64,000 nucleotides of DNA from a phage. Shown in pieces: positions 1 through 22,226 of this stretch; within the stretch, counting starts at the first letter, position 1; every line of letters starts with the position of its first letter. Both the position numbers and the translations under genes were made by a program. The notes beneath the pieces were generated by a model. It worked only from the letters and a program-made list of their open reading frames with translations. It had not been told where the DNA came from and made no database searches. The stretch lies in assembly GCA_033648345.1 (NCBI GenBank), contig GCA_033648345.1_4121.1. One strand, 5' to 3'.

Positions 1-794
1 GATGCTGCTGTGCTGCCTGGAGTTTTATTTGAATAAATTGAAATATACAAATTATCAGGTGTTTGGTTATGTTCAGACGCGGGGATAGTAATGGTGTATT
101 CATCACTAGATACTACCCAATCCGCTTGGTTAATTAATTTACTATAAGGTACTGTCATTGTTGTTGCTCCTATGATGTTGACTTTGACACTTGTATAATC
201 AGTGATTTGACCAATAACACCAATCGTAATGTCACCAATACCACTCACAGTGACGTTAGTTTGGAATACAGTGTCAAGTGGGATGTTACCAGGATCACCC
301 TGTAGCTGAACCATAATATCTGGCCCACGACCATGTACTGATTCAGGTAAAGAATAAGTATATTGATCTGTTGTTCCAGGAACTAATGTAAATGCCGATA
401 CAGGAACGATTTCAGTAGTAACGTAAGAACTATCAGTACCTGGAGTTGTGCTTTGGAGAGGCTTCCAAACACCAAGGTCTTTAATATAGATCTGAATAAT
501 ATTAGTACTGTCAACTAAGAAGTAAGCGTCACCATCTACACCGATTGATTCAGATGGTGCAATAGTTCCACGTAAAATACCGGAACCGCCACCACCACCG
601 CTATGTGTATTCAAATAACCCAATGTAACCAAGTGTGTATTTGCGGTTGGGTCACCTGCTGAAACAGGAAGAAGTTGTGTACCCGTGTAGTTCTGGATTT
701 GAACAACATTACCATTAGTGGCAATTTGTGCACCATTTTTACCAAGTATGAAGGTCTTCTTCATGGTTCCTTCTAAATTAGAAAAAACTGCCAT
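1..794 (-). CDS. Tail fiber protein, 5' partial in window (C-terminus lies beyond position 1)
   Basis: ATG at 794 (reverse strand) preceded by AAGGAG; frame open to the window edge; N-terminus MAVFSNLEGTMKKTFILGKNGAQI nearly identical to the N-terminus of the next gene; poly-Gly linker GGGGGSG typical of fibers. Confidence 0.6.
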   Translation of the reverse strand, partial: MAVFSNLEGTMKKTFILGKNGAQIATNGNVVQIQNYTGTQLLPVSAGDPTANTHLVTLGYLNTHSGGGGGSGILRGTIAPSESIGVDGDAYFLVDSTNIIQIYIKDLGVWKPLQSTTPGTDSSYVTTEIVPVSAFTLVPGTTDQYTYSLPESVHGRGPDIMVQLQGDPGNIPLDTVFQTNVTVSGIGDITIGVIGQITDYTSVKVNIIGATTMTVPYSKLINQADWVVSSDEYTITIPASEHNQTPDNLYISIYSNKTPGSTAA

Positions 795-808
795 TTTTAT
801 AATCTCCT

Positions 809-2950
809 TTAAGATAGGGTGATATATGTTATTGGTTGAGCAGCTTTCAATAATGCCCCTGCTGCGGTAGCAGTAACAATCGGATCGGCAATATCGATAC
901 GATACGCATTATTAACAACATAAACTGCTCTAGTGATATATGTTTTTAAATCTTCGCCATTTTCCCCTGCTCCTGTGATTAGGATTTCGGTTCCAGCAGC
1001 TTTAGCATATTGATTATCACCCCATGATACACCCAATGCTTCGATATAAGTTTGTCCTGCAACTGTTTGTCTAATTGTGTCATATCGACCAAAGAAAGAA
1101 CCACCTACTGTAACAATAAATTTTCCACCTGATTGTTTATGGATAATTGTTCCTGCTGGGAAATATCTCCCACCAGGAAAAACATCATAAGGCACGTAAT
1201 ACTGTTCAACTACAGGTATTACTACAGGTCCACGATGACCCGTTCCATCAATTGCAGTGGTTACTTTAAAGTTATTAGATGATTGGTCAATACGGTCAAC
1301 ATACATTCTTGAGAAACTATATTTTGATATGTTACAATCATCTTGAACAACACAATTAGTCCAGTTGGTATATGTATATTTAGAGCGAGTATATAAGCCC
1401 CCTCCTTCACCTTCAGTTGCAAGGTGTTGTCCAATAACATCAAGTTCTTTAGTACTGATATTATTAAACTTGGAAGATGACGGCAATCCACGCCATTGAA
1501 TTCTACTACATGTAATATTAGAAAGTTCAGTAGTATTTAGCCAATTATCAGAGCCTGAAGTATACACAATAATAGACGACTCAGGAATGTGGAGATTACA
1601 TAATTTAAAGTTTCGTGGAGGACCAGCAAATTTACCAGATGTTACGCCCCAGTTAATAGAAACCATACGGTTAGTTACTGATGGATCATTTAATAGATGC
1701 CCAGATAGGCCATCAATAATAAAATCAACAGAACCATAAGTAATTACACCAGCGGTTGTCAAACCAGTACCAATTGATACCAACGTTGATGGATAAACTT
1801 CATTATTGAGAATTTTAAAGTCTTTACCCAACTCAACGTGAATACATTGACGGACATTGTACAAGCGGTTATTTTTTATAACGAATTTTTTTACATATTG
1901 TGAATCATCAGCATTCACATCATAAGGACCAGAACCTGCAACACCGATACCAATACCCCAGTTTGAAAGAGGAATTGGTGCATTTGTACCATCTACGTTT
2001 TCAATCAAGTTACCTTCTATTACAAATCCGTCTGGGTAATGTGAGTTGACTACGTTCAATTCAATTGCATCACCATATATATCATGGATGTGGTTGTATG
2101 AATAACGCCCAACGGTCATTTTCTCACCAGTGCCTTGCTGAAGAACACCGTACTTACATTGTGTCATTTCATTAAAGCAGAAGTCGATAGTACCTGATTC
2201 AGTCATACCTTGCATTAGAAATGCAGCAGTACTTGTAATATTAATAAATTTATTAAAATAAAATTTACCATTACCACCAAAGAATTTTAAATAACATCCT
2301 GTTAATGTTGCTTGTTGGATTGTACTATTCAGTACCGATACCATTGTGCCACCGTTACCAGTGATTGTACCACCAAACCATTGAATATCATTCAAATAAA
2401 CAGCAGTTCTGATACGATAATTACCACCAGCTTGAATTTGGATTTTGTGTTCTTTAGCATAAACTGCACATGCGTTAACCGCCGCCGTGTCATCAGTGAT
2501 GCCATCACCTTTTGCACCAAACTCTTCTGGAGTTATGTAAAACTGTGCCTGTTGAAGTGTTCCTCCAGTAATAAGTCCGATATAATCAGCACCGTTAACA
2601 CTGGAAAGGACATTTTTATTAATGTATAATGATTTTACCCAAACATCATTTGTTTTTGCAAAGATATCAACAATACCCTCAGAATCAACTTGAAAATAAG
2701 TGTTGTTATTTTTACCAATGTCATTTGTTGGTGGAAGTACGCCAAATAAAGCATTTGGGTTATCTTCAAGATACCTAACGTTTACTGCGGAATCATCGTC
2801 ATTAGGAGTTCCCACCTTAACAGGTAGGAACGTTTCGCCTAAAAAGTCTTTGATTGCGACAGAATCGTTTACAAAATTAATAGAAGCACCACGTTTACCC
2901 AACTTGAATGTTGGCATCATGGTCCCTTCTAAATTGGAAAAAACTGCCAT
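809..2950 (-). CDS. Tailspike / tail fiber with pectate-lyase-like beta-helix (putative polysaccharide depolymerase)
   Basis: 713 aa; FGAKGDGITDDTAAV motif typical of the pectate lyase superfamily; shares the N-terminal module with the upstream fiber; GAGGG RBS. Confidence 0.7.
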   Translation of the reverse strand: MAVFSNLEGTMMPTFKLGKRGASINFVNDSVAIKDFLGETFLPVKVGTPNDDDSAVNVRYLEDNPNALFGVLPPTNDIGKNNNTYFQVDSEGIVDIFAKTNDVWVKSLYINKNVLSSVNGADYIGLITGGTLQQAQFYITPEEFGAKGDGITDDTAAVNACAVYAKEHKIQIQAGGNYRIRTAVYLNDIQWFGGTITGNGGTMVSVLNSTIQQATLTGCYLKFFGGNGKFYFNKFINITSTAAFLMQGMTESGTIDFCFNEMTQCKYGVLQQGTGEKMTVGRYSYNHIHDIYGDAIELNVVNSHYPDGFVIEGNLIENVDGTNAPIPLSNWGIGIGVAGSGPYDVNADDSQYVKKFVIKNNRLYNVRQCIHVELGKDFKILNNEVYPSTLVSIGTGLTTAGVITYGSVDFIIDGLSGHLLNDPSVTNRMVSINWGVTSGKFAGPPRNFKLCNLHIPESSIIVYTSGSDNWLNTTELSNITCSRIQWRGLPSSSKFNNISTKELDVIGQHLATEGEGGGLYTRSKYTYTNWTNCVVQDDCNISKYSFSRMYVDRIDQSSNNFKVTTAIDGTGHRGPVVIPVVEQYYVPYDVFPGGRYFPAGTIIHKQSGGKFIVTVGGSFFGRYDTIRQTVAGQTYIEALGVSWGDNQYAKAAGTEILITGAGENGEDLKTYITRAVYVVNNAYRIDIADPIVTATAAGALLKAAQPITYITLS

Positions 2951-2964
2951 TTATCAACCCTCTT

Positions 2965-4092
2965 TTAAATGTTATCTTGAATAGGCTGAATAGGTGCTTG
3001 CCATGATAAAGTACAAACGATCTTCATTTCACCAAATGAACTGTTGTTTACGGAATCATTGAATACACAAGAAATGATTTCATCTTTACTTGATACTTCG
3101 TGGTTGGTTTCGTTAACAATGTAACGCATTTTGCGGTTGATATCGAAATAATCAACAGGTGCAATTACAGTACCACCAATATCTTCTTGTGCTTCACCAC
3201 CGAAACGTACAAACATTTCATTTACTGGTTCATCATATGCTTGGTTAATATCAACTTCGATATTAGTTACTAGGTATCCAGCAGGGCATGTACCAATAAC
3301 TAACAATGCGTTAGTCCATGAATGATCAATAGTGTTGATGATAACAACTGTATCTTTACCTGGTTCACCCTGAATACCTTGTTCACCTTGCTTACCTTCT
3401 TCACCGTCTTTTCCACGGAATAAGATACCAGCACTCCACTCTTTAGTTGGGGTTGATGATGTAGTTACGATATCGACATAATACAAATTACCATCTGTCG
3501 TGTTATAGAAGCAATAATCTTGTGGTAGATTATCAATGCTTGGGAATTGACTACCAGTACTATCAATATGGAAACGACCACGTAGACCTTGTTCACCACG
3601 GAAAGGAATACCATCACTCCATGTTGCAGTTACGCTTTGATAGAAATATAATTTACCATCTTCAGTATTATAGAATGTGTAATTATTGAAAAGACCAGTT
3701 GTTGGAAACACCGTACCAGAACTGTCAATGTGGAATGGTTTACCAGTTTCACCAGTATCACCTTTACCAAACTCTACACGGTTCCAAGTACTAATTGCTT
3801 CTTGTGCATCGTTTGATTTAAAATATAAAGTACTAGTGCCATTTGCAAGACTAAGATAACACCACCCTAGTTCTTCACCAACACGGAAGAGTTCATTAGG
3901 AACTTCAAAACCTATCTCATTTGGATAAAAGTTTCTACCGTTAGCACCATTTTGTCCAACCACTAGACCTAGGTCTTGGATTGTATTGTCGGAATAGGTT
4001 ACAATTAAATGTCCAGCAGCGTTAATAACTAAACTTTTGATGCCAGAATTATTACATGAACCACCTGACCCATTGTTGAATGAAATTGTCAT
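2965..4092 (-). CDS. Tail fiber protein with collagen-like G-X-Y repeats
   Basis: Track ORF starts at TTG 4128; ATG at 4092 has AAGGGAAA RBS; collagen-like stretches (GEQGLRG, GKDGEEGKQGEQGIQGEPGKD) and internal repeat FYNTEDGKLYF / FYNTTDGNLYY. Confidence 0.6.
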   Translation of the reverse strand: MTISFNNGSGGSCNNSGIKSLVINAAGHLIVTYSDNTIQDLGLVVGQNGANGRNFYPNEIGFEVPNELFRVGEELGWCYLSLANGTSTLYFKSNDAQEAISTWNRVEFGKGDTGETGKPFHIDSSGTVFPTTGLFNNYTFYNTEDGKLYFYQSVTATWSDGIPFRGEQGLRGRFHIDSTGSQFPSIDNLPQDYCFYNTTDGNLYYVDIVTTSSTPTKEWSAGILFRGKDGEEGKQGEQGIQGEPGKDTVVIINTIDHSWTNALLVIGTCPAGYLVTNIEVDINQAYDEPVNEMFVRFGGEAQEDIGGTVIAPVDYFDINRKMRYIVNETNHEVSSKDEIISCVFNDSVNNSSFGEMKIVCTLSWQAPIQPIQDNI

Positions 4093-4201
4093 AATATTTC
4101 CCTTGTATGAGTTAATGTCATATACCAATATTTATCAGTACAAAATACATTTCGTTGCCATTAATAAATAAATGAAAGTTCACTACTAAAAGGGCTTAAC
4201 A

Positions 4202-4699
4202 ATGGCATTAAGATCAAAAGACTTCCTCTTCAAAAGAAAAACTAAAGATGGTTCATGGCAAGAATTTCCTGAATCAGATAGCTGGTATCCTGCTAACTTA
4301 GATTATCATTGGAACGAACAAACATTACCATTAGCTAGTGGCGGCTATTATGGTAGTACTACAGGATTACATACAATATCCTTTACCCTACGTAACTTCA
4401 TTGGTAGAATTTACGTACTCGCTACACTGGCAAGTAATCCATCTGACGATGATTGGTTCCCAATTAAATTTACCGAAAGCTGCAACTTCTATCTTGAATT
4501 TACTGATAATGTCATTCTTAACCCAAATGGCGGCGACCTTATTAGAGAACAAGGTACAACTGGTACATTCGCTGAAACCTTAACCGGAAACTTTACCTAT
4601 CTGAAAGTTGGTATTGACCGTGATTACATTAGCAAGTATCCATCTGATGTACAAAAAAGTTTAGCTGGTAAGTTAGAACAAATTTTAATTAACTACTAA
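4202..4699 (+). CDS. Hypothetical protein
   Basis: 165-aa ORF with AAAGGG RBS; no recognisable motif. Confidence 0.5.
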   Translation: MALRSKDFLFKRKTKDGSWQEFPESDSWYPANLDYHWNEQTLPLASGGYYGSTTGLHTISFTLRNFIGRIYVLATLASNPSDDDWFPIKFTESCNFYLEFTDNVILNPNGGDLIREQGTTGTFAETLTGNFTYLKVGIDRDYISKYPSDVQKSLAGKLEQILINY

Positions 4700-4708
4700 G
4701 GATTAGAA

Positions 4709-5317
4709 ATGAAATTAGAAACAGAACAACCAAAACTATTTGTTAAGGGTCATGTACTAATTACTGACGTTACTGATCCATCTAACCAAAAAATCGTTTT
4801 GGATAAATCAAACGCAATTCACCCTGAAAATATGAGTACTGCTATTGCTAATGCGTTGGCTTATAATCAAGATAGTACTGGTATTCCTATTGGATCTATT
4901 AGTGAGATGCGTTTTGGTAATGGTGGAACAGTAGTTTTGAGTACTGGTCGTATCACATACAAGAAACCACGCGTTACTTCTTTCGGTGGTCTATATTCTC
5001 AGACTTATCTGAAAAAAATCAACCCACGTATCTCTGCTGGTATTGATTCACAATATAACAACATTACAACTGTTCACATTCCAGGCCAAGCTTACACTGA
5101 TATCGTCTGTATTTGTACATTAGGTTTAGGTGAGCCATCTGACCAAGGTGTTAGCTCTGGTACTAGCATGGATGGGACATATGTATTTGACGAATTGGGT
5201 TTATATACAAATGGTGATAGCGGTATTCCACTTACCCATATTATTTTTCACCCAGTTGAGAAAAGTGCTAACCGTGTTTTGCAAATCAAATACACAGTTC
5301 GTGTCCAACTACAATAA
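4709..5317 (+). CDS. Hypothetical protein
   Basis: 202-aa ORF with AAGGA RBS; tightly packed with neighbours. Confidence 0.5.
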   Translation: MKLETEQPKLFVKGHVLITDVTDPSNQKIVLDKSNAIHPENMSTAIANALAYNQDSTGIPIGSISEMRFGNGGTVVLSTGRITYKKPRVTSFGGLYSQTYLKKINPRISAGIDSQYNNITTVHIPGQAYTDIVCICTLGLGEPSDQGVSSGTSMDGTYVFDELGLYTNGDSGIPLTHIIFHPVEKSANRVLQIKYTVRVQLQ

Positions 5318-5329
5318 TAAGGTGATGAT

Positions 5330-6430
5330 ATGAGTGTAAGTTATACAATTTATAGAAGTAATGGTAGCGTTTATGCTACCATCCCAAATAACGTAATATT
5401 AGGACCAAACCAACCTGGTAGTAACCCAGTACCGTTAAACTTTGCAGGTCGAAATAAAGTTGGTTACGGTCAAGCATGGAACGAAAACTTCCTCCACTTG
5501 GTTGAGAACTTCAGTGGGGCTACTGCACCTCGTGGTAACGTTAATGGTCAGATTTGGTACAGAAATACTGGCAACACTGGCGAACTACTTCTTGCATTAG
5601 TTGATAATGCTCGTCAACCAGTAGATACTGCATCTGAAGCTGACTGGGCATCTATCCCAATGATTTCAATTTTCAACACAGTACCAGATGGTGAAAATAG
5701 TATTATGGGTCGTATGGTTCTTACCAGTAATGGTGATTCCCTTCGTGTCCTAATGAAAAATAAAGAATGGCGTGAAATTCAAACATCTCGTCCAGAAAAT
5801 AAAGAGTACTCCACACTACTTGATATCAACTATGATACAGGTAAGAAATATATTGAATTTACACAAAGTAACAGTACTAAGCCATTAGCGTACTTCAATA
5901 TGGGTGGTACTTCACAGGTTGATTCAAATAACTGGACAACATTCACAAATGGTACTGGTGTGTTTGAATTTGGTAGTAACTATTTTTATGAATTGAAAAT
6001 TATGATTCGTGAAGTTAGTGATTCATCAGGTGAAATTGTTTCTCTTCCGTATAATTCAAAAACATTTTTCATTAAAGGTCAGTTCTATGTTGATAACCAA
6101 GGTACATTTGTTCCCGGTTCAATTGGTGCAAGTCAGATTCCAGACCCACGTCGCATAACACAACTAGAATCAATCAAGGATGTAATTACAAGTAGTCGCC
6201 CTAATTGGGATGTATCTATGGTAATTAATGGTGTTGACCCAACTCTCCCAAATCCGAATGGTATTACAAAAGCGGATTACGAAAACTGGGTGGTTAACTC
6301 TCTTAACTCTAATAAAAACTTAGGGTTCCGCGTCGATGGTATAGTAAACAACCTTTCGGCAGGTGAGTCGGTTAAGCTTCAAGCATCTGTTCTACTTAAT
6401 ATAACAGGTATCCCACTAATTGGGGTATAA
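5330..6430 (+). CDS. Hypothetical protein (possibly structural / fiber-associated by context)
   Basis: 366-aa ORF with AAGGTGA RBS; followed by a terminator hairpin. Confidence 0.5.
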   Translation: MSVSYTIYRSNGSVYATIPNNVILGPNQPGSNPVPLNFAGRNKVGYGQAWNENFLHLVENFSGATAPRGNVNGQIWYRNTGNTGELLLALVDNARQPVDTASEADWASIPMISIFNTVPDGENSIMGRMVLTSNGDSLRVLMKNKEWREIQTSRPENKEYSTLLDINYDTGKKYIEFTQSNSTKPLAYFNMGGTSQVDSNNWTTFTNGTGVFEFGSNYFYELKIMIREVSDSSGEIVSLPYNSKTFFIKGQFYVDNQGTFVPGSIGASQIPDPRRITQLESIKDVITSSRPNWDVSMVINGVDPTLPNPNGITKADYENWVVNSLNSNKNLGFRVDGIVNNLSAGESVKLQASVLLNITGIPLIGV

Positions 6431-6939: not shown

Positions 6940-8283
6940 TTATTTGTCAGTGAAAGTTATTTTCCAATATCCCTGACGATATACTGACATAATACTCTTA
7001 TGCCATTTGAATTTGTCATTATATCTATAATATCCACTATCTTCCATATTATAAACATAGTTGTGTACTCGCGATGGCTCAATAAGTTCTGCTCCATCAT
7101 TGGTAATTTTAAACAAATAGTTCGCTGGGATTTCAGTCTCTTTGTAAATGATGTTATGTATGCTATTATTTACATAATATTGTTCAGGTAGTGCGTTATA
7201 TAATAAAGAGTCTTTACTAATGAATCCATGTATTGTATAATCAACAGTATAATTACTATTATCAAGCTGAACTACAATCTTGTTAGAATCAGCCCCTTCC
7301 CCAAATGAAGAGATATGTCCTTTTAGTGGGTTATCCTCTTCTATAGCTTGTTGGAATTTAATACCTACAGTCTTGTCTTCATATTCTGGGTCCAAGTACT
7401 TAAGGTATTTTTCCCATGAATAAATCCCACCATTTGGTGATGTTTCCGATAGTGATTGACTAACAAGAGTGAGTTGGTAAGTATCTGGAATATTAAGTTC
7501 AGAGTTTGTTATTTCATCAACTTTAATACATAAGTTCTTTGGTGTGAATACATCAGTAATGATATCCGAGTAATTACCAATTTCAAAATCAAGTTCATCA
7601 CGAGCACCTTTAATATTGGTGGTGATTTGTTGGATAAGTTTTGGTTTCTCAACAATAGCTGGCAAAGAGAACCAAATTGTGGTTTCAAATGTCAATACCA
7701 TTATATCCAAATCACTATCGGTTCCTTGTGGGAAACCACGAGTAGTAAATTGACAGTCAATCAACTCCACATCACTCAATGATGTCCAATCCAATGGGTT
7801 CTCGGAGAGTTGTAGTTGAATACTAGGAGCAAACAATGTTGAAATTTGCTCAAATAGTTCCATTTTAGTTTGTGTTTGTGTAACCCAAATATTAACATCA
7901 AACGTAAATGTCCAAGGTACTGGGTTATGACGAGTTACTTTATACTGTTTATCTAAGTCTTTAGTATATTCGTTAATTCCAGGGGACTTGTTAGTCCCCA
8001 TAACTAATGTTTCATTTGCGTTTGAACGAACTGACTTGCGATCTAGTTTAAGTTGGTTTACACTAATGGTCATGATTGGTGCTGTTGGAAGCACGTTCTC
8101 ACTGTTACCATTAATAATTGCGGCTGCCATACGTGAAATATCTGCATAGCGGCAAGGAACTTTCTTATATTTTGGTTTTCCGTCAGCATCAACACCATTT
8201 TGTACTTGAAATTCACCAAACACTCTGATAAGATGTTTCAGTACTCGACGAAATTGACCATCATAATAATAATCTATTTTCAT
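6940..8283 (-). CDS. Hypothetical protein
   Basis: 447-aa ORF; ATG at 8283 overlaps the stop of the upstream gene; AAGGA RBS. Confidence 0.5.
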   Translation of the reverse strand: MKIDYYYDGQFRRVLKHLIRVFGEFQVQNGVDADGKPKYKKVPCRYADISRMAAAIINGNSENVLPTAPIMTISVNQLKLDRKSVRSNANETLVMGTNKSPGINEYTKDLDKQYKVTRHNPVPWTFTFDVNIWVTQTQTKMELFEQISTLFAPSIQLQLSENPLDWTSLSDVELIDCQFTTRGFPQGTDSDLDIMVLTFETTIWFSLPAIVEKPKLIQQITTNIKGARDELDFEIGNYSDIITDVFTPKNLCIKVDEITNSELNIPDTYQLTLVSQSLSETSPNGGIYSWEKYLKYLDPEYEDKTVGIKFQQAIEEDNPLKGHISSFGEGADSNKIVVQLDNSNYTVDYTIHGFISKDSLLYNALPEQYYVNNSIHNIIYKETEIPANYLFKITNDGAELIEPSRVHNYVYNMEDSGYYRYNDKFKWHKSIMSVYRQGYWKITFTDK

Positions 8284-9776
8284 TCTGAATCCTTATGTAT
8301 ACGATACGCTGTATTAGGTTTAACTGCATCATGTAATGGTACACGGTTCGGGCTATTAACAAATTCTGTTAGAGCAAGATCTGCACCTTCCCACGGTTTT
8401 CTACCACCGTAATCGAAAATCACCCAAGAATTCTTGGACGCACTGTATTCCCATAGGGTTACTGGTGTATAATCGGTACGATAGTAGTAATCACCATCAA
8501 CTGCATCACTTGGGAACATATTACCTTCAGGAACTGTACCTCGTGCTGGAGGAATCTTAGGACGATAATCTTGTTGTGAATCGATATTTCCATAAACACT
8601 ATTAGAAGTGAATGGGTCATTAACGTAAGTTACTTCTGGTTCTCCCCATTTACCATTTAAGTACTGATAAATGTGTGGTTCTTTGTATTCAATATAAAAA
8701 TCATCAACCCCTTGTGGTGGTGTGCTTTCTGTAGTATACTCAACATCACAATTTAGCCACTTTTTGGCAGATTTATCGTATTGATACAATGAGAAGCCAG
8801 TGACATCAGCCTCGTTTTCTTTAAAGAAGAAGTCACCATCCATCGGTTTGCGAGGAAAGATTGTTCCACGCTTGACTTCTACAGAAATCCATGTATCATT
8901 AGATAGTTCTTTCAGTACTGGGTAAGTTTTCTTGAGGAAATACATTTTATTTGCTGGTTCCTCTGGTAATTCGTATCCATTTAGCATATACTTAGACAAA
9001 TCAACAGTATCTGGTCTGTCATCGAACAAGTGTTCGTTAGTAAAATGAATGTATGGTACTTCATCATCAGCTTGCATAATGATACGGTTCATAATATCCA
9101 TTTCATTACCATAGCTGCTGTTCTCTGAAGAGCCATCATCAGTATTACCATTGCCGTTGTTTGGATCATCTGGGTCATCAGGGTAGTTATTGTTACCTAG
9201 AAGGTCAGAGTACTCTGGTGAATCAGTAAGAGGTTTAACACGGAGTTTGTAAATGTGATGTTGCCATGTAACTGAGTAACCTTCTGACGTTCTAAACCCA
9301 TCTTGTACTACATAGAAGCGGTTTAAACCAGAATCTTTACCAAGTACATCAAAATCACGTAAGTTAGGAAGTTCGATTACGTCACCTGGCATAATTTTTC
9401 TTCCCAAACGCTGAATCATTGTGTTATAATGAATTGTGATGTCCATAGTGTTAAAGTTGAAGAACAATCCTGGGATTTTCAAGTCAGGAGTTGCTTCTTG
9501 GACTTGGTAGACGCAACTTAAGGTGATAGCTTCGAGATTATAGTTACGACTTGGAGTGTCACCAAAAATTAAATCACCAATGCTTGACACAACGGTACTA
9601 TCTGATCCATAATAATCACCGCCGTATGATAAATCAGTGTTATCAGCGACTTGTTTTGGTCCGACATAGGCATAAAGCCACATGTCAACACCACCGATGT
9701 TGTATTGTTCTGCTATGGCAGAGTCAATGAACTTGTAATCATTGGTTCTACCTTTTTTCCACATTCTATATGCCAT
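8280..9776 (-). CDS. Hypothetical protein
   Basis: Track start 9788 is TTG; ATG at 9776 preceded by GGAGAC; 498 aa. Confidence 0.5.
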   Translation of the reverse strand: MAYRMWKKGRTNDYKFIDSAIAEQYNIGGVDMWLYAYVGPKQVADNTDLSYGGDYYGSDSTVVSSIGDLIFGDTPSRNYNLEAITLSCVYQVQEATPDLKIPGLFFNFNTMDITIHYNTMIQRLGRKIMPGDVIELPNLRDFDVLGKDSGLNRFYVVQDGFRTSEGYSVTWQHHIYKLRVKPLTDSPEYSDLLGNNNYPDDPDDPNNGNGNTDDGSSENSSYGNEMDIMNRIIMQADDEVPYIHFTNEHLFDDRPDTVDLSKYMLNGYELPEEPANKMYFLKKTYPVLKELSNDTWISVEVKRGTIFPRKPMDGDFFFKENEADVTGFSLYQYDKSAKKWLNCDVEYTTESTPPQGVDDFYIEYKEPHIYQYLNGKWGEPEVTYVNDPFTSNSVYGNIDSQQDYRPKIPPARGTVPEGNMFPSDAVDGDYYYRTDYTPVTLWEYSASKNSWVIFDYGGRKPWEGADLALTEFVNSPNRVPLHDAVKPNTAYRIHKDSE

Positions 9777-9818
9777 GTTTGTCTCCAAAATAAATCGGGT
9801 ATATCTTTATTTACCTTG

Positions 9819-9846
9819 TTGACAAACGCAAAGAATGTGATATAAT
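9819..9846 (+). promoter_or_regulatory. Sigma70-type promoter for the ClpA-like gene
   Basis: TTGACA (9819-9824), 16-nt spacer ending TGa, TATAAT (9841-9846). Confidence 0.6.
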
Positions 9847-9884
9847 GTTTATTAATTAGAGTGACTACTCATTTAGGAGAATAC

Positions 9885-12173
9885 ATGAATCTTACCCAAT
9901 TATTCAAAAAAAGCGACGAACTGGCAACTTCTCTGGGTCATACCTTCTTGACTATTGACCATCTAAGTGCTACAGTACTGACAATCGATAGCATCAAAGC
10001 AGTATTTGAAGATATGAACATCGATGCAGACAACCTACACGGTCGTTTGATTGCATATCTGAAGAATACAACATTCCCACATGCACCTAAAAGTGCTGAT
10101 GGTGATGAAGCGAACCGCACATCACTTCTCGTGAACCGTGTAGTTCAGGAACTTTCTAAGAAATCAGTAATTGAGCAACTTAAACGTGATGATTTCTCAA
10201 TTGATGCTTATTTTGTACTGTTTGAGTGTTTGTCCTTCCCAAATACTGCACTAGAAGCAGCATTGCGTGAAGAGGGTATCACTTGTACTGAAGCAGCACG
10301 AACTCTACAGAAGCACGTAGAAGCAATCGACAACGGAATCAACCTTCAAAGCATTAGTGATGAGCCAACTGGGGAGAAAAAAGTGGCACAACAACAACCA
10401 TCGTCCAAACAAAAAGGTTTAGAAGATTACACCACTAACCTAACCGCACTTGCAAAAGAAGGTAAACTTGACCCAATGATTGGTCGCCAGAAAGAGCTTT
10501 CTGCACTGATTGAAACTCTGGCCCGTAAGACTAAGAAGAATGCTATCCTGACTGGTGAAGCTGGTGTTGGTAAAACTCAAATCATTGATGGTCTAGCACA
10601 GGCAATCGCTGATGGTGAAGTACCAGAGCATCTTAAAGATGTTGAAATTCTGTCTCTGAACGTAGGTGCACTGACTGCTGGTACTAAGTACCGTGGTGAG
10701 TTCGAAGAACGTATCGATAACCTACTAAAAGAACTGAAGAAACGTGAAAACACTATTGTGTTCATCGATGAAATCCATATTATGGTTGGTGCTGGTTCAG
10801 CAAGCAACGGTTCTATGGATATGAGCAACATGCTCAAACCTGCACTATCTCGTGGTGAGATTCGTGTAATCGGTGCAACAACTTACGATGAATATCGTAA
10901 AAACATCGAAAAAGATAGTGCACTAACTCGCCGTTTCATGAAAATTGATGTAGTTGAGCCAACAATTGATGAAACCCGTGCGATTGTGAATGGTTTGAAA
11001 TCTACTTATGAAACTTTCCATAACGTAGAGTTCAGTACTGAAGCAATGGATGCAGTTATTACACTAAGTGATAAGTTCCTGAAGAACAAACACTTCCCTG
11101 ACAAAGCAATCGACCTAATGGATGCGGCAGCAGCGAAAGTACGTTCTCGTGAAACTGATGATAACATCATCACTGTTGCACTGATTCAAGAAGTTGTTGC
11201 AGGTATCGCAAACCTAGATATTAATGTGGTTGCTTGCACTGAAAGTGAACGTATGCGTAATCTACCAGATGCACTCCGTTCTCGTGTATACGGTCAAGAA
11301 GAAGCAGTACAGAAACTGGTTGATAACGTGATGGTAGCTCGTGCTGGTCTGCGTGATAAATCAAGTGTTCAAGGTGCATTCATGTTTGTTGGTCCATCTG
11401 GTACTGGTAAAACTGAAATTACCAAAGCACTGGCTGATGCAACTGGTTCTGAACTGATTCGTTTCGATATGTCCGAGTTTTCACAGGAACATACTGTTGC
11501 TAAACTGATTGGTTCACCTCCAGGCTATGTTGGTCACGATTCTGGTAACGGTCTGCTACTCGACAAGATTGAGCAGTTCCCGAATGCAGTACTGTTGCTT
11601 GATGAAATCGAAAAAGCTGATCGTAAAGTACTACTAACCTTCCTACAGGTTCTGGACGAAGGACGTTTGACTGGTTCACAAGGTAAAACTGTTTACTTCA
11701 ATAACGTAACTGTTATTATGACGACTAACCTTGGTGCAGCAGATTCAACCAAGCGTAGTATTGGGATGAGCGGTAGTGATACAGCACAAGATAAAGCTAT
11801 TAAAGCATTCTTGCCACCTGAATTCATCAACCGTATCGATAGTATTGTGACATTCAAAGACCTAAGCAGCGAAGCGATTGACAGCATCATTGATAAGTTC
11901 ATGGGTAGTCTGAATGAACAAATCAAAGACCGCAAAGTTAAAGTTTCCCTGACTAAAGCGGCACGTGAGTGGTTGGCAACAAATGGTGTTAAAGTTGGGA
12001 TGGGTGCACGTCCAATGAAACGCACTATTGAGCAAAACATCCGTGTCCCACTAGCTAAAGAGATGTTGTGTGGTTCTCTGGTTAATGGTGGTAACGTAAC
12101 GTTTGATGTGATTGATGGTAAATTGGCTATCAAACCTAAACGAACTAAAGCAGTAGAAAAAGTTATTGCGTAA
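9885..12173 (+). CDS. clpA: ClpA-type ATP-dependent Clp protease ATP-binding subunit (N-domain plus two AAA+ modules)
   Basis: Near-colinear with E. coli ClpA from memory: two Walker A motifs (GEAGVGKTQ, GPSGTGKTE), GARPMKR sensor, candidate ClpP-docking tripeptide IGM; track start GTG 9861 replaced by ATG 9885 with AGGAGA RBS. Confidence 0.85.
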   Translation: MNLTQLFKKSDELATSLGHTFLTIDHLSATVLTIDSIKAVFEDMNIDADNLHGRLIAYLKNTTFPHAPKSADGDEANRTSLLVNRVVQELSKKSVIEQLKRDDFSIDAYFVLFECLSFPNTALEAALREEGITCTEAARTLQKHVEAIDNGINLQSISDEPTGEKKVAQQQPSSKQKGLEDYTTNLTALAKEGKLDPMIGRQKELSALIETLARKTKKNAILTGEAGVGKTQIIDGLAQAIADGEVPEHLKDVEILSLNVGALTAGTKYRGEFEERIDNLLKELKKRENTIVFIDEIHIMVGAGSASNGSMDMSNMLKPALSRGEIRVIGATTYDEYRKNIEKDSALTRRFMKIDVVEPTIDETRAIVNGLKSTYETFHNVEFSTEAMDAVITLSDKFLKNKHFPDKAIDLMDAAAAKVRSRETDDNIITVALIQEVVAGIANLDINVVACTESERMRNLPDALRSRVYGQEEAVQKLVDNVMVARAGLRDKSSVQGAFMFVGPSGTGKTEITKALADATGSELIRFDMSEFSQEHTVAKLIGSPPGYVGHDSGNGLLLDKIEQFPNAVLLLDEIEKADRKVLLTFLQVLDEGRLTGSQGKTVYFNNVTVIMTTNLGAADSTKRSIGMSGSDTAQDKAIKAFLPPEFINRIDSIVTFKDLSSEAIDSIIDKFMGSLNEQIKDRKVKVSLTKAAREWLATNGVKVGMGARPMKRTIEQNIRVPLAKEMLCGSLVNGGNVTFDVIDGKLAIKPKRTKAVEKVIA

Positions 12174-12206: not shown

Positions 12207-15200
12207 TTATTTAACTTCTAATAGATTTTTAATGTCATTACCACTTATTTGCAAACTATCGGAGTAAACAGATAGTTCGATTGGATAACTGTTAACACTA
12301 TAACGTTTTAGTAAATTAACTTTACCTAAGTTCAAGCCATTAAATGAATATGTCACATTCTCTTTAAAGTCGTGTTCTGCACTATACATTACCCCACGGA
12401 GTAAGTTATTTGCAAAACGTACTTCAACTTTTTCAAAACCAAGAGAAATAATATCATTCATACTTGCACCAGCACCAGATAGAACATTATTAGTAACACT
12501 ATATGGACTAACTGAATCTGGTTGTGAAACATAAGTAGTATTTTCTTCACTGATAGCAGTAATGTTAGTTACTGTTCCACCAACTACACCAATATATGTA
12601 TCACTAACTAGTGGATATGCATATTCCCATACCCCTTCAGTATTCAGTACTGGTTGAATAATACCAACATCATACTCGAACACGTTAATTTCCACACTAT
12701 CAGTCATTTTGGTTCTCACTAACTCACTAAGAACACCTGCACCAGTAATTGGTAAGTTATATCCGTTATCAATGGTAACACCATCAACTTCAAATATCTC
12801 GTTAGACACTACCCAAACATCAACGTCATCTGGTGTAATTCCATCATTATAAGAACCACCGTATAGTGTTGTGTCGTAGAATACTTCATAGTTCATTGCA
12901 TCGATAGCATAGTTTCTATTTGTTTCATACAACTTAACACCATCAACCAAGAATTCTGGATCAGCAAAGGTTCTAATACGAACAATGTTCAATGCTAGAG
13001 GTATTGCTGGTTCATTCTGTTGTTGTTTAGTGATGTTATCATAACGAAGTACAACTCCAGTACTATCTAGTAGTTCTACAGTTCCGTTCGCAGTGTTTCT
13101 TACTGTGTACAAGGTTGGTGTGGTGTCAGTTTTGATTTTTGATACACTCAAGATGGTTTCCCATGCATTGTTTTGGTATCTCACATAATCTTCACCATCA
13201 GTTGTGAATATCATAACCTTATCACCATCAGATAGGGTATTGTCAATTACTTCAGCTTCTGTATCACTAACAATTGATTTAATTTTATAGAAGTATTTTT
13301 CATCATACTTACTGTATGATTTACTAATATCATTTTCAATCTTAGCGTAAGAAGGAATACTAACAATTGCTTCTGTTGTTTTATAAGGGTTGATAATAAC
13401 CATACCTTCAGTTTTATATCTACTATTGTCTCTCAATTGAACTAGTGAAACACTATTGAATCCATAACCATCAACTGTGAAGCGAATCTGACCAATCTTT
13501 CTTCCTGATGGGTTAATATCAGAAATGTCGATTATGTACGGATCTACTTCGTCACCTTCAACTTCCCATTTTAACTCGGAAGTTTGTGATTCAAGTGCTA
13601 GGTTATCAAATGCATTCATATCATCGTAGTACTTAGCATCGGTGATGCTATCTAGGATGTGCTGATAATCACTGTACATTGGGTTATTTCTATCAAGAGG
13701 TAAGTCATCAAGATTTATTTCTGCCAATTGAACTAGTTGACCGTCAGTTATGAATTTGTCTTCCATGAAATCATCAATGCTTTGGTCATCTGGGATACTC
13801 TCGTATACACCATTAACATTAACATAAACATATTTTCGTGGCATCATAGTAAATGCATGAATATCAATAGGCATTCTACTTAGTATTTCTTCAGCCTTTT
13901 CATAATGGTCGGTAGCATCTTTGTCATACAAACCACGCATACCGGACAATACATGAATTGCGTCATTGTAGAATCGTTGATTTCCATCTTCATCTACATG
14001 GCGATATGAATAAACACCATATTCAACTTCAAGTATAATTCTAACTTCATCATCAGTTGCAGTAGTATTGTTTTCTTTAATTAAAGAAACATACTTTTTA
14101 TACAACTCACTACTAACTTCAAAGTAACCAAAGTTATAATCAGTACTGGATGCATAACCAAACGGTAGTCTGGTGCTTGGATTATCATCATAGGTTAACC
14201 CACTAAATCCACATCCAACTTCATCATGAATTACTTCATCATCTGCACCTGTGTACAATTTCAAACGGTTAGAGAGTGTGTTATACTGAACGTAATGATT
14301 TACGTCATTAAACATTTCATTTTGTGTTGATTCTTTATATACACGATTCAACGTTTCTGTGAATTCTGCGGTTGCTACCAAATCATCTGCATGGTCTGCA
14401 TACCATTGGTTAACACCGTAAGCAATCCCTAGAGTTACGTTCAATTCTGGGTAATACAATTGCATCTGATAAGCAACCAATAGGTCGAAATCTTCATCAC
14501 TGTATTCTGGGAATGTATATTTGTAACGTTGTAATTCAAAATTACTAACAACATCTTGTGCATTAGATTGATATTTCTTATTCACTTCTTCCAATACATC
14601 AACACTTGCCAAATTATCATTTGGTTTACATTGAGTGTTGTCGTAGTGCATGATAACATCAATTTCTTGGAAACGGCGATTAGGTGTTACGAAATCACTT
14701 GGCAATTCACCAACTTGCTCCCAACGTTGAGTTACCTCATTGAATTGAGCATATTCATAATCCCAAATGTCTTTTTCCGTTTTAACCCAAGTCCCATCTG
14801 CAAATATATAGCCATTAGGATCTAAATCATTACACAAACCTTTAATTAAATCATCATCTGAAGTTTTCTGTTCAATCTGGGAACGAATCTTAGTTCTATA
14901 TGGTTTAACTTCTTCAAAGTACTCAACGATTTGATTAATCAAGTTGTCGTTGGAATAGTTCTGTACTAATGATTGTTCTAAACCTACAATATAAATGTAA
15001 GATGTTTTGAATACCCAATCAACAACGCTTTGTTCTACGTGAACATACTTAACCATATCAAACACAATTTCACTCTGATGTAAGTCGAATGAGTTCTTCA
15101 ATAAAGCTAGTGCTTTACGAACGTTAATCTCACGATTACTCAACGAACCATTAGCATCACGAACTGTATAGTCAGCGTATAACATATCATTCAATTCAAC

Positions 15201-18200
15201 TGTACTATTTTCACGACCAATTGCTTTCCAGTAAACTGAATCACGTGATTGTGCTTTAATGTACAATGTCCAGATGCCATCAACATCTGTAATTCTGATA
15301 ATGTCACCAACTTGATAGTTCTTAGTGTTTGCATCTTCTAGGCTGGATTCTTGTGTATATGCAGTATTTTTATCGTAACCAATATCATACCAATCTGCTA
15401 GTGACCAGTACTGGGTCATGTCCAATGAAGTTCCTAGTGCTTCAACATAGTCTGATTGTTTAATCATTTTCTGTTGACCTTCACCACGGTTTTCCAATGT
15501 AATGGTAACCACACTACCAGCACTTGATGGACTATTCATTAGATGAATATAACCATTAGCATCAATATGCACAAAATATACAGAGCTAGTTGATAGTGGG
15601 TTAGGTAATACACCACTAGTACTTACTAGTACTGCGTCATTTTCTTTGAACTTGTCACTTTCAGGTGCAATGACTAATTCACTATTGTAAGTTAGTACAC
15701 GATATGATACTTCATTCGGGTTAACTTCAGTAGTTTTAACATTAAACACTTCGTCCATTAGAACAGTGTTAGTTGTTATATTCTGTGAGCGATAATAGTT
15801 ATTTGCACTTTCTACAAAGTTTCTACGAGCTTCAATTACATCTTGGAACCAAGTCTTATTAGAACCTAAACCGTTTGGTACTAAAGGATATAGTAAATCA
15901 ATAACAGTTCCTGATTCAGTAGTTTCTTGACCAATCATAGAATTCCACATAGAAGTCCAGATTGATGGATTGAAGTTATAGCTATCACCTTCTTTACATA
16001 ATTGATACTGGTCATGTTTAATAACTTCAGTATTATCCATGTAATAAGAAACAGTTAAAATACTTGTGTCATCGTTGACTTCAAATTGCATATTACTTAG
16101 AATGAACGAGCTTTCATTGATTGGTGCAAACCAAGGAATGTTAAGCTGTGCTGGTTCTTTAATAATACGAGCAATATCAGTACAAGATTTAGTTCTGGAA
16201 TGCAATGGTGGTACATAGATTGTATCACGAACCCAGAAATAGTATTTTGTAACATAAGTATCAGTTGTGCTATCATATTCTAAGAACGTACTATAATTAT
16301 CTTCCAATGCGGTTCCGCTTGGTAGGTACATAGTGTTGTTTTTATTTTTGTTAGCAACGTCTTTACAGTATTTGTCCCAGTTATATGGTTCAACTGGCGA
16401 ACATACCCATTCAAGAACATCAACAGTACTGTGCGGTAGCAATCTGCCCCAGTTATAACGTTTATATTCATTTGTTGCATCAACATCCACATTACCATCA
16501 GCATCATAGATTGCACGAGTGTAATCTAAGTAGAAAGCAGTGCTGGTGTTCCACCAAACCTGACCAACTTTATCAGCACCCCATGCTTGAATCAATTCAC
16601 CATTGCTGTTGTATTGTGCTGGGTCAACTGGAGATGTGTAGGTAACGTTCTGCATCGCTGCACCAGGAATAACACCGTTGATTGGGTCAAACACGTTTAG
16701 GTACAACGCAGTAATGTTAGTACGCTCATCATATGTGGTTGGGCGGTCAAACAAAGTACTTTGTGGAGCTTTAAAACTATATTTTCTGTCAATGTATTCC
16801 TGACGCATCTCTTCAGTACTGAATCGTGAAACATAACGATACAAGCGTGGGCGAGTATCAGGATCAGTGAAGTCAATAGTGATTGAAGTGTCAAACGGAA
16901 CTACCATAACTCTAGGGTCATTACCCGCAGTATAATATTGACTTTCTATAGTCAATGTATCTGGCATAAAGTTAGTTTCATCAACAAAGTAATAATAATC
17001 ACCATCATTTAGTGGGATATCATCACTTAGAGTTACTTTACAGAATTGTTCTGCATATACATCGGTATTTTCAATTGGAACGATAGAGAGCATCTCAACT
17101 TCAGTGTCTATTAGTTCGAAAATATTCCACAAATCATTACCATCTTTAAACATCCATACAGAATCTGGGATTTCACCACTGTTATTCATATAATTGATAC
17201 GATCATTATATGCAGTACTGAAATCTTTAGTAACGTATGAAATTTCATCTAGTGTCACAGGACCAATGTCTGGAAGTTGGATATTCTCACTTCTTCCACT
17301 ACGCATTGGGAATGAAAACTTACCATTTGGACGAGTAATCCAGCGTGAGTCAACCCCTTGTTCACCGTAATAAACAATACCATTACCAGTACCATTTGAT
17401 GTAGCATTAACATCAAACGAAACCATCTGTGGTTGTTGTTTAAATTGGTCATTGATTAGTTTAAATTGTAGATTTTTCTTACCATTGATATTACCATAAG
17501 TACCAATCTTAAATGCCCATTCCTGAAGTGCTTTATATTCATCAGTGTCGTAAGATTTAGAAACGCGTAGTACTTTTTCCATTACTTGGTTAGTACCTTT
17601 GTCATGAATGAATCCTTTATAGAAATCAACACGACTAACATCACTACTAATCATACGTTGTAGATAATCACGAGTTTGATAGCCAATCAAGTGATTTGAT
17701 AACTCTTGAAGCTGAACATCACTCACAGGAGTTTCACTATTATAATATAATTCAAAATCAGTTACTAATTTTTCAAATGATGGTAAAGTTCCTGCTTCTA
17801 GTATAATGAAACCAGGTGCTTGTAGGCGACCAGTCCATGACCCAGTAATGTAACCATACATTTTAATCAATTCTTGAATAGCACCATAAGTTGGTTGGTA
17901 AATGTAATCACCAAAGATAGTTTTATCATCAAAAACAACTGCGTGTTCATATGAACTTAGGCTCAAACGAATCAACGCCATACGTTTTTGTGATTCGGAT
18001 GTAGTTCTCACTGTGAATACGTTACCGATACGCGAAGTTTCGATTTCATATTGACGGATACCTTGGTTTTCATCATCGAGTAGTGACCAAACACCACCAC
18101 TATTCTGTGTAACAGATTGAACTGAACCAAAATCCGCACCAAATTTAGCATTAGCTGCACTTGGAGTACAGGAGATGAACTCACCAGTACTTAAATTATT

Positions 18201-22178: not shown

Positions 22179-22226
22179 TTTTGGACTCCATATAATTCGT
22201 TCATTCATTTGATTTATTTATGATAT

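Follow-up and report, generated by a model that had tools for sequence, protein, structure and literature searches.

Tail genes closely related to those described here are known from the Asteriusvirus jumbo coliphages 121Q, where they are gp572, gp573 and gp574, and PBECO4, in which the counterpart of the middle gene is labelled 'putative colanic acid degrading protein'. Kim et al. 2015 (AEM 81:900) is cited for PBECO4 gp547 by PMC10059673 and is not counted as evidence here. The enzyme portion has a crystallized homolog in gp150 of phage phi92 (PDB 6E0V/6E0W; Justusliebigvirus orthologs), which is reported to hydrolyze the β-1,4 Glc-Fuc bond of colanic acid (Xu et al. 2025, via PMC13450770). 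CBA120 TSP1-4, the KP32-type proteins RBP1/RBP2 and RaK2 gp526-gp534 join a conserved N-terminal particle-binding part to an exchangeable distal one with an enzymatic or binding role, with several such proteins per virion (PMC10253068, PMC13352976). Finally, collagen-like phage fibers and bacterial collagen-like proteins (PF01391) show G-X-Y periodicity followed by a globular C-terminal knob.

The window, a stretch of phage DNA of 64,000 nucleotides, opens with three tightly packed genes at positions 1-4092, all on the minus strand and at the coordinates given in the original prediction:

1..794, minus strand: p1, 264 codons from the start of the gene for a conserved virion protein of 299 aa; the 3′ end is beyond the window (PHROG 10468)
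809..2950, minus strand: p2, predicted 713-aa colanidase tailspike, ortholog of 121Q gp573 (phi92 gp150 homology, PHROG 6117)
2965..4092, minus strand: p3, conserved 375-aa 'tail protein' built as beads on a string (PHROG 13565)

Megablast finds 99.7% identity over 4200 nt to the Asteriusvirus jumbo coliphages WPEC5 and fEgEco12, and about 80% identity to 121Q and PBECO4. These genes begin the tail-fiber region of an Asteriusvirus jumbo coliphage (121Q/PBECO4-type, Rak2-like), whose sublineage is that of WPEC5/fEgEco12/Ecwhy_1 (99.4-99.7% identical). An N4-like phage, first suggested by a 3333-aa ORF, was rejected on the megablast result. The 121Q genes gp572/gp573/gp574 are direct orthologs of p1/p2/p3, alike in order and lengths; the p2 proteins of 121Q/PBECO4 are 78.6% identical to that of the window in the anchor and 88.8% identical in the catalytic part. 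No differences of substance separate the two systems. The locus is a tail operon of three genes already known from 121Q-type jumbo phages of E. coli and not a new type of system; what is found in it is ordinary and had largely been annotated before. It is a clear case of modular tail evolution. The interpretation originally offered for the locus is, as a whole, partly supported.

The three genes are co-oriented, with gaps of 14 nt both between p1 and p2 and between p2 and p3, and they are probably co-transcribed. A promoter and terminator scan of positions 1-4400 returned sites no more numerous than in shuffled sequence. RaK2, GAP32, CBB, XaC1, Munch, EJP2 and 121Q all keep one order of genes: gp15-like sheath completion protein, NUDIX, three structural genes on the reverse strand, p3, p2 where present, p1, long fiber. 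In WPEC5, the relative examined, the long-fiber gene is duplicated just outside the equivalent of the window.

Core virion proteins p1 and p3

PHROG 10468 matches p1 with an E-value of 1.9e-92, and orthologs are found in 121Q (gp572), CBB (CBB_227) and GAP32 (GAP32_221). The full-length protein has 299 residues in WPEC5 and is divided as follows:

600..794, minus strand: p1 anchor, residues 1-65 (alignment to p2, cross-genus conservation)
459..599, minus strand: p1 Gly-rich linker and fiber-repeat unit, residues 66-112 (conservation, profile, model)
3..422, minus strand: p1 distal part, two Ig-like β-sandwich domains, residues 125-208 and 217-298, the second truncated at the window edge (residue 264)

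The 64 p1 homologs are 203-309 aa long and 42-97% identical, and the protein is conserved at near-constant length across all Rak2-like genera irrespective of host. The exception is RaK2/K64-1, where only the anchor of p1 is left, in a 115-aa ORF; RaK2 ORF060w, considered as the detached C-terminal half, was rejected because similarity is absent. Mass spectrometry has identified CBB_227 in the CBB virion. p1 is a core structural protein, and not a swappable receptor-binding domain or variable fiber.

The third gene product, p3, is matched by PHROG 13565 'tail protein' (E 8e-213), and its 59 homologs (353-387 aa) all belong to the Rak2-like group; they include 121Q gp574, CBB_228 and RaK2 ORF062w. 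Two orthologs have been detected in virions by mass spectrometry: CBB_228 with 13 peptides and phAPEC6 gp253 with 65.6% coverage. We place the start at an ATG; an alternative TTG at 4128 (+12 residues) is disfavored by the PHROG profile and by the annotations of relatives. The N-terminus of p3 has nothing in common with that of p1 or p2. Its G-X-Y runs and distal knob are located as follows:

3931..3957, minus strand: G-X-Y run 1, GQNGANGRN, residues 46-54 (G46, G49 and G52 nearly invariant)
3736..3762, minus strand: G-X-Y run 2, GDTGETGKP, residues 111-119 (G111 and G114 invariant, G117 nearly so)
3571..3597, minus strand: G-X-Y run 3, GEQGLRGRF, residues 166-174 (G166 and G172 invariant, G169 nearly so)
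3352..3414, minus strand: longest collagen-like run, GKDGEEGKQGEQGIQGEPGKD, seven triplets, residues 227-247
2968..3351, minus strand: C-terminal jelly-roll knob, residues 248-375

The G-X-Y repeats for which p3 had been called a collagen-like fiber are real, but they amount to only 16 triplets in four interrupted runs (3, 3, 3 and 7). Across 57 homologs the glycines at every third residue are invariant or at least 90% conserved, with residues 227, 230, 233, 239 and 242 of the longest run invariant or nearly so. The Pfam Collagen model (PF01391) reaches 16.7 bits against a cut-off of 27.2 (E 0.0063) and covers residues 239-257 only. In the monomer model, run 1 is an inter-domain linker and the longest run has low pLDDT, and the runs serve as linkers between small β domains. 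They are too short for the whole protein to be called a collagen-like fiber: p3 resembles the PF01391 proteins in its G-X-Y periodicity and globular C-terminal knob, whereas its bulk consists of small β domains. Both p1 and p3 are core virion proteins of every Rak2-like phage, and, RaK2/K64-1 p1 excepted, every genus of the group has orthologs of constant length and position.

The N-terminal module shared by p1 and p2

The two proteins share an N-terminus, but their distal parts are unrelated: p1 continues with Ig-like domains, p2 with a gp150-like enzyme. This follows the logic of the CBA120, KP32-type and RaK2 tailspike systems, each of which places several such proteins on a virion. A common stretch of about 20 residues had been predicted, and it is real (17 of the first 21 residues identical, 81%, including all of the first 11). 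The similarity extends further, however, to about 110 residues, and is significant (45/110 identities, 41%, E 2e-20, BLASTP); 30 of the first 65 residues are identical (46%), and BLASTP detects no similarity past residue 110. The corresponding segments of p2 are:

2756..2950, minus strand: p2 anchor, residues 1-65 (MAVFSNLEGTMMPTFKLGKRGASI...), homologous to the p1 N-terminus
2621..2755, minus strand: p2 fiber-repeat unit, residues 66-110 (G..P....G....Y...D....I.....W), at profile positions 65-112

Two elements make up the shared region: an anchor, which is specific and about 65 residues long, and a fiber repeat of wide occurrence. Conservation across genera is highest at the extreme N-terminus, with M1, A2, F4, S5, N6, G9, T10, M11, F15, G18, K19 and G21 invariant, and p2 keeps these residues. 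The p1 monomer model has β strands at residues 14-35 and leaves residues 1-10 disordered, as expected of a docking peptide.

It is highly improbable that the similarity amounts only to the common tail-fiber repeat (G..P....G..GD.Y..D......Y.K....W), with no specific anchor. A word-index search started from the anchor alignment yielded just 7 short proteins, uninformative on architecture, and an exhaustive profile search of 1.84 billion representative proteins was used instead. Profile positions 65-112 match dozens of unrelated long proteins, in up to 14 tandem copies each, and similar units recur within p3, all of which would suit a repeat-only origin. Residues 1-65, however, lie upstream of the repeat and show the identities given above. 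By themselves, these positions match the N-termini of proteins of 99-1366 aa (library-wide E down to 1e-17), and among isolated phages they are confined to the Rak2-like jumbo phages. The repeat thus explains residues 66-110 but not 1-65.

Metagenome proteins that bear the anchor carry as distal parts a KP32gp37-like depolymerase with an S74 chaperone domain (Peptidase_S74), Beta_helix, or BNR repeats, and one metagenomic contig (L012) holds two anchor-bearing spikes in one cassette. These fusions to other depolymerases and to propeller-containing fibers support a single anchor with swappable distal parts. The predicted scheme of an anchor with swappable receptor-binding domains stands for such modules, but does not extend to p1. 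Pfam PF27114 'Phage_tail_beta' is among the precomputed matches of both L012 spikes.

Identity between the p2 anchor and any p1 anchor is 40-48%, compared with 52-69% among the p1 anchors of different genera. A recent intragenomic duplication of the anchor was rejected because the p2 copy is equally distant from all p1 anchors. The same figures mean that the two anchors could have diverged for different sites, and we regard it as a possible, if somewhat doubtful, alternative that p1 and p2 bind different partners and are not rivals for a single site. p1 would then be an adaptor of the neighboring long tail fiber, its anchor seated in a baseplate or long-fiber socket, and the p2 anchor would bind another site, or p1 or p3 in a branched arrangement. 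Branched docking-peptide systems are known in Klebsiella phages (PMC13352976, PMC10253068). RaK2, which lacks a CBB_226-type long fiber (PMC5259590), has only the anchor-only p1, which points to a joint role for that fiber and the Ig-like half of p1. On the other hand, the identical N-terminal residues and the retention in p2 of those invariant across genera argue for one conserved binding surface.

The predicted colanidase tailspike p2

The remainder of p2 belongs to a different family:

815..2665, minus strand: catalytic and C-terminal portion of p2, residues 96-712 (homology to the crystallized region of phi92 gp150)

Residues 96-712 align end to end with the crystallized part of gp150 (6e0v_A chain residues 11-623, E 4.3e-233, phmmer against the PDB), and against the gp150 ortholog of phage Paula (residues 189-801) the identity is 57% over 617 residues. 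PHROG 6117 'colanic acid degradation' covers residues 94-711 (E 3.5e-252). The motif FGAKGDGITDDTAAV at residues 143-157 aligns with FGAIGDGVTDDTQAI of the gp150 structure, and both proteins contain FGA.GDG.TDDT. The Pfam Pect-lyase_RHGA_epim match (E 0.005, 17 bits) falls below its 27-bit cut-off; it is the 57% identity to the solved gp150 structure that leads us to infer a β-helix fold. Homology to the gp150 colanidase thus bears out the predicted polysaccharide-depolymerase tailspike, whose activity is expected to be that of an endo-glycanase on colanic acid. Colanic acid is the slime polymer of most E. coli, K-12 included. With this slime the most likely substrate, a K-capsulated host is not implied, and the encapsulated host that had been proposed does not follow.

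The N-terminal 188 residues of gp150 have no similarity to p2, which instead carries the Rak2-like module of about 105 residues. Judged from these alignments, p2 is a chimera that joins an anchor of Rak2 type to an enzyme of the phi92 gp150 type, with a breakpoint at approximately residues 96-110, as similarity to gp150 starts at 96 and similarity to p1 stops at 110. The phages that encode the two enzymes differ, gp150 coming from a 148 kb phi92-type myophage and p2 from a 350-380 kb jumbo myophage. The gp150-family colanic-acid glycanase has moved between phage lineages, and the depolymerase module is present in at least 256 sequenced phages of several lineages. In the Rak2-like group the gene is an accessory insertion, limited to 121Q-type coliphages and decayed in several of them. 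Only 121Q-type coliphages have two anchor copies per genome, all other genera having one. EJP2 lacks p2; the gene is split in vB_Ec-M-J, no more than a stump remains in JNE01 (P0007), and the copies of JP4 and P0005 have internal deletions.

We consider it probable that p2 is an accessory colanidase tailspike, docked in the Rak2-like virion through the anchor of its p1-paralogous module and cutting colanic-acid slime. The near-invariant first 20 or so residues and the anchor as a whole would attach p1 and p2, presumably as trimers, to the same or equivalent sites on the baseplate or fiber apparatus; a structure search found no solved Rak2-like baseplate. The virion-borne enzyme would cut the slime layer (in gp150, at the Glc-Fuc β-1,4 bond), so that other phage fibers could reach an outer-membrane or LPS receptor. 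It may in this way widen access to mucoid, Rcs-induced cells without defining the host, which fits the patchy presence and repeated decay of the gene in close relatives.

Alternatively, p2 could be a soluble depolymerase, freed at lysis to strip colanic acid or biofilm matrix around the burst, with its N-terminus serving in folding, trimerization or chaperone recognition. This we judge unlikely. The category assigned to PHROG 6117 is 'moron, auxiliary metabolic gene and host takeover', and the mass-spectrometry table of the phAPEC6 virion (62 proteins) does not list the p2 ortholog, gp254; nor does it list the p1 ortholog, gp255. Both ORFs are intact in phAPEC6 and unannotated in its GenBank record, which makes their absence from the table hard to read. 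Against a soluble enzyme, the p2 module is homologous to that of p1, whose CBB ortholog is in the virion; the gene lies within a structural operon, flanked by two genes for virion proteins; the closest characterized relative is described as a tailspike; and modules of the p2 type head other tailspike-like proteins as well.

Implications for Rak2-like phages

For annotators, the 713-aa gene is better recorded as a predicted colanidase tailspike than as the 'colanic acid biosynthesis protein' of several records; it is no sign of a K-capsulated host, and the flanking 'fibers' are core virion proteins. With its mapped breakpoint, p2 offers a clean case of a circulating depolymerase module grafted to a lineage-specific anchor, and the delimited anchor could guide the engineering of jumbo-phage receptor-binding proteins. 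Overproduction of colanic acid is a known route to phage resistance, and virion-borne colanidases are therefore relevant to phage therapy.

A broader and more tentative proposal is that Rak2-like jumbo phages, and uncultured phages related to them, have a general docking socket, defined by the module of about 65 residues and open to any distal module. It is conceivable, at a similarly guarded level, that p1 is the default occupant of this socket and the 115-aa RaK2 protein a bare plug, with colanidases, capsule depolymerases and propeller-containing fibers as optional cargo. Were this true, the anchor would serve as a portable tag by which new enzymes or binding domains could be mounted on the virions of jumbo phages, and it would explain how specificity for surface polysaccharides changes while the core baseplate is left untouched.

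The probable p1-p2-p3 operon and its surroundings

The three genes at the start of the window lie on one strand, are separated by gaps of 14 nt, and each have a plausible ribosome-binding site before the start codon:

1-794, minus strand: p1, 264 codons inside the window, the gene continuing past the edge (299 aa in near-identical phages)
809-2950, minus strand: p2, tailspike of 713 aa
2965-4092, minus strand: p3, 375 aa counted from the ATG

Promoter- and terminator-like sites were no more numerous in a consensus scan of this region than in shuffled sequence. The simplest reading is a single operon that diverges from the plus-strand genes beginning at 4202. A megablast search with window 1-4200 matched 56 phage records, with Escherichia phages WPEC5 and fEgEco12 at the top (99.7% identity) and 121Q, PBECO4, phAPEC6 and others at ~80%. 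The matched phages belong to Asteriusvirus, a genus of jumbo myophages (350-385 kb) within the Rak2-like group. In 121Q, GAP32, CBB, XaC1, Munch, EJP2, and RaK2, the genes of this neighbourhood keep one order: a sheath completion protein like T4 gp15, a NUDIX hydrolase, three structural genes on the reverse strand, p3, p1, and the long tail fibre.

Directly left of window position 1, WPEC5 carries two giant fibre genes encoding 1644 and 1906 aa (L002:6843-11777 and L002:973-6693 in its locus). Their products have in common a second, different N-terminus, MYSIKTDLD[IV].G..VGKDLLVKG.AVF, plus much of their length; 121Q has one giant fibre gene of that kind (gp571). WPEC5 labels the 1644-aa fibre "colanic acid-degrading protein", apparently in error. 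On L012, a metagenomic contig, a 199-aa protein (13149-13748) begins with a motif similar to the giant-fibre N-terminus, MAYNVKSDLDVATG. Elsewhere in the window, a minus-strand ORF of 3333 aa (12207-22208) is followed by one of 1153 aa (22259-25720); for the former, vB_Ec-M-J and WPEC5 have a matching ORF, which carries the annotation virion structural protein or hypothetical protein.

The shared N-terminal anchor

The original prediction gave p1 and p2 a common N-terminus of ~20 residues. The similarity exists (BLASTP, 45/110 identities, E 2e-20) but is longer than claimed, extending over ~110 residues, beyond which BLASTP detects none between the two proteins. Identical residues number 17 of 21 at the N-terminal end and 30 of 65 over the anchor; M1, A2, F4, S5, N6, G9, T10, M11, F15, G18, K19, and G21 are invariant in ten sequences from seven phages. 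At the nucleotide level, the first 11 codons (window 764-794 and 2920-2950, minus strand) differ at 2 of 33 positions, the ribosome-binding regions resemble each other (TTAAAGGAG and TTAAAAGAG), and the codons after the first 11 are only about 55% identical. Strong constraint on these 11 codons, or local gene conversion, could account for their near-identity.

A profile of the anchor region was searched exhaustively against 1.84 billion representative proteins. Positions 1-65 match N-termini only, in proteins of 99 to 1366 aa. Positions 65-112 correspond to a common repeat of fibre proteins, which many unrelated long proteins carry in tandem, with as many as 14 copies; the p3 interior also holds units of this kind. 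Among isolated phages, the 1-65 module is confined to Rak2-like jumbo phages, with the anchor at two sites in each 121Q-type coliphage genome and at one site in each genome of every other genus (tblastn). Every p1 anchor shares 40-48% identity with the p2 anchor, compared with 52-69% between p1 anchors of different genera, which points to an old duplication or to fast divergence of the copy. The two anchors, which would dock to the virion, may use distinct sites. Candidate partners are the proteins of three divergent plus-strand genes at window 4202-6430 (165, 202, and 366 aa), whose place beside p3 is conserved in all the Rak2-like phages examined; the latter two have orthologues among the virion proteins of phAPEC6 (gp251c, gp250c) and CBB (CBB_230, CBB_231).

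In metagenomic proteins, the anchor heads a 780-aa spike (P0022) with a body 33% identical to KP32 gp37 and a Peptidase_S74 chaperone end, a 705-aa Beta_helix spike (P0026), BNR-repeat fibres of 1200-1366 aa, and several further proteins of about 280-620 aa. P0022 and P0026 share one fibre cassette on a 120-kb contig, which supports the general notion of one anchor bearing exchangeable distal parts. Precomputed Pfam results list PF27114 "Phage_tail_beta" for both anchor-bearing L012 spikes (8001-10343 and 16571-18343; Logan SRR18476386), so a curated Pfam family may already exist for the anchor or for the neck domain next to it.

The p2 tailspike as an accessory enzyme

Residues 96-712 of p2 match the crystallised phi92 gp150 (6E0V/6E0W; E 4.3e-233), described as a colanidase tailspike. 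They share 57% identity with residues 189-801 of the orthologue of gp150 in phage Paula (804 aa), of which residues 1-188 are unrelated to p2. Residues 94-711 match PHROG 6117, "colanic acid degradation" (E 3.5e-252). Being p1-like up to residue 110 and gp150-like from residue 96, p2 is, on its sequence, a chimera of a Rak2-like-lineage anchor and a gp150-type enzyme, with the junction at about residues 96-110. The catalytic module is widely travelled, occurring in 256 phage records that include Justusliebigvirus, rV5/phAPEC8-like myophages, and ~41 kb phages such as J8-65 and forsur.

According to Xu et al. 2025, as cited in PMC13450770, gp150 hydrolyses the beta-1,4 Glc-Fuc bond of colanic acid. 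Membership of this family suggests the same colanic-acid-cleaving activity for p2, which by homology to the solved gp150 structure would adopt a beta-helix fold; its own Pfam pectate-lyase-like match is below threshold. An encapsulated host, as originally proposed, does not follow. Colanic acid is the M-antigen slime made by most E. coli, K-12 included, so a K-capsulated host is not implied. Relatives have been recorded on hosts that include K-12 MG1655 and O157:H7.

The colanidase gene is absent at the p2 position in EJP2, GAP32, CBB, XaC1, Munch, and RaK2. It is split into two CDS in vB_Ec-M-J (L001:12809-14951), reduced to a 141-aa stump in JNE01 (P0007), and internally deleted in JP4 and in P0005 (201 aa). 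Such damage in several close relatives suggests that the gene is dispensable under some propagation conditions. p2 is accessory, and p1 and p3 are core. The intact gene is named "colanic acid biosynthesis protein" in several GenBank records and "MutT/NUDIX hydrolase" in CRJP21.

Conserved proteins p1 and p3

Homologues of p1 (n = 64, 42-97% identity) span 284-309 aa save one fragment, and nearly all 59 p3 homologues span 353-387 aa. Mass spectrometry places the CBB orthologues of p1 and p3 (CBB_227 and CBB_228) in the virion (PMC5259590), and the p3 orthologue gp253 reaches 65.6% coverage in the phAPEC6 virion proteome (mass 40.99 kDa, vs 41.27 kDa calculated here). The 713-aa and 298-aa ORFs of phAPEC6 (L011:5001-8055; gp254 and gp255 by numbering) are intact but lack CDS features in GenBank, and neither is listed in the virion proteome table; p2 is therefore a putative virion protein. 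Both p1 and p2 presumably form trimers.

RaK2 and K64-1 keep only a 115-aa, anchor-only p1 ORF and have no CBB_226-type long fibre, a hint that this fibre and the Ig-like half of p1 function together. Proteins consisting of anchor and repeat unit with no distal domain (113-115 aa) are found in these Alcyoneusviruses (RaK2 ORF061w, L003:6001-6348) and in some metagenomic relatives; P0003, P0006, and P0012 are of this form. The next RaK2 gene, ORF060w (510 aa), was considered as the p1 C-terminal half and rejected as unrelated.

The description of p3 as a collagen-like fibre holds for its conserved G-X-Y repeats but is overstated, with only 16 triplets and a sub-threshold Pfam collagen score. 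The glycines vary little or not at all across 57 homologues, making it plausible that the runs are short triple-helical linkers in a trimer.

Overall, the original observation stands and its interpretation is right in part: the idea of exchangeable distal parts on one anchor is supported, but p1 and p3 belong to the conserved core and are not host-range cassettes. The locus itself is not new, since this tail operon is known and annotated in a phage lineage already sequenced, and p2 is a member of a tailspike family whose structure and biochemistry have been characterised. To this are added, modestly, a mapped chimera junction, a delimited anchor family of ~65 residues, the spread of that anchor, in uncultured phages, to further kinds of distal module, and the identification of p1 and p3 as conserved core proteins.
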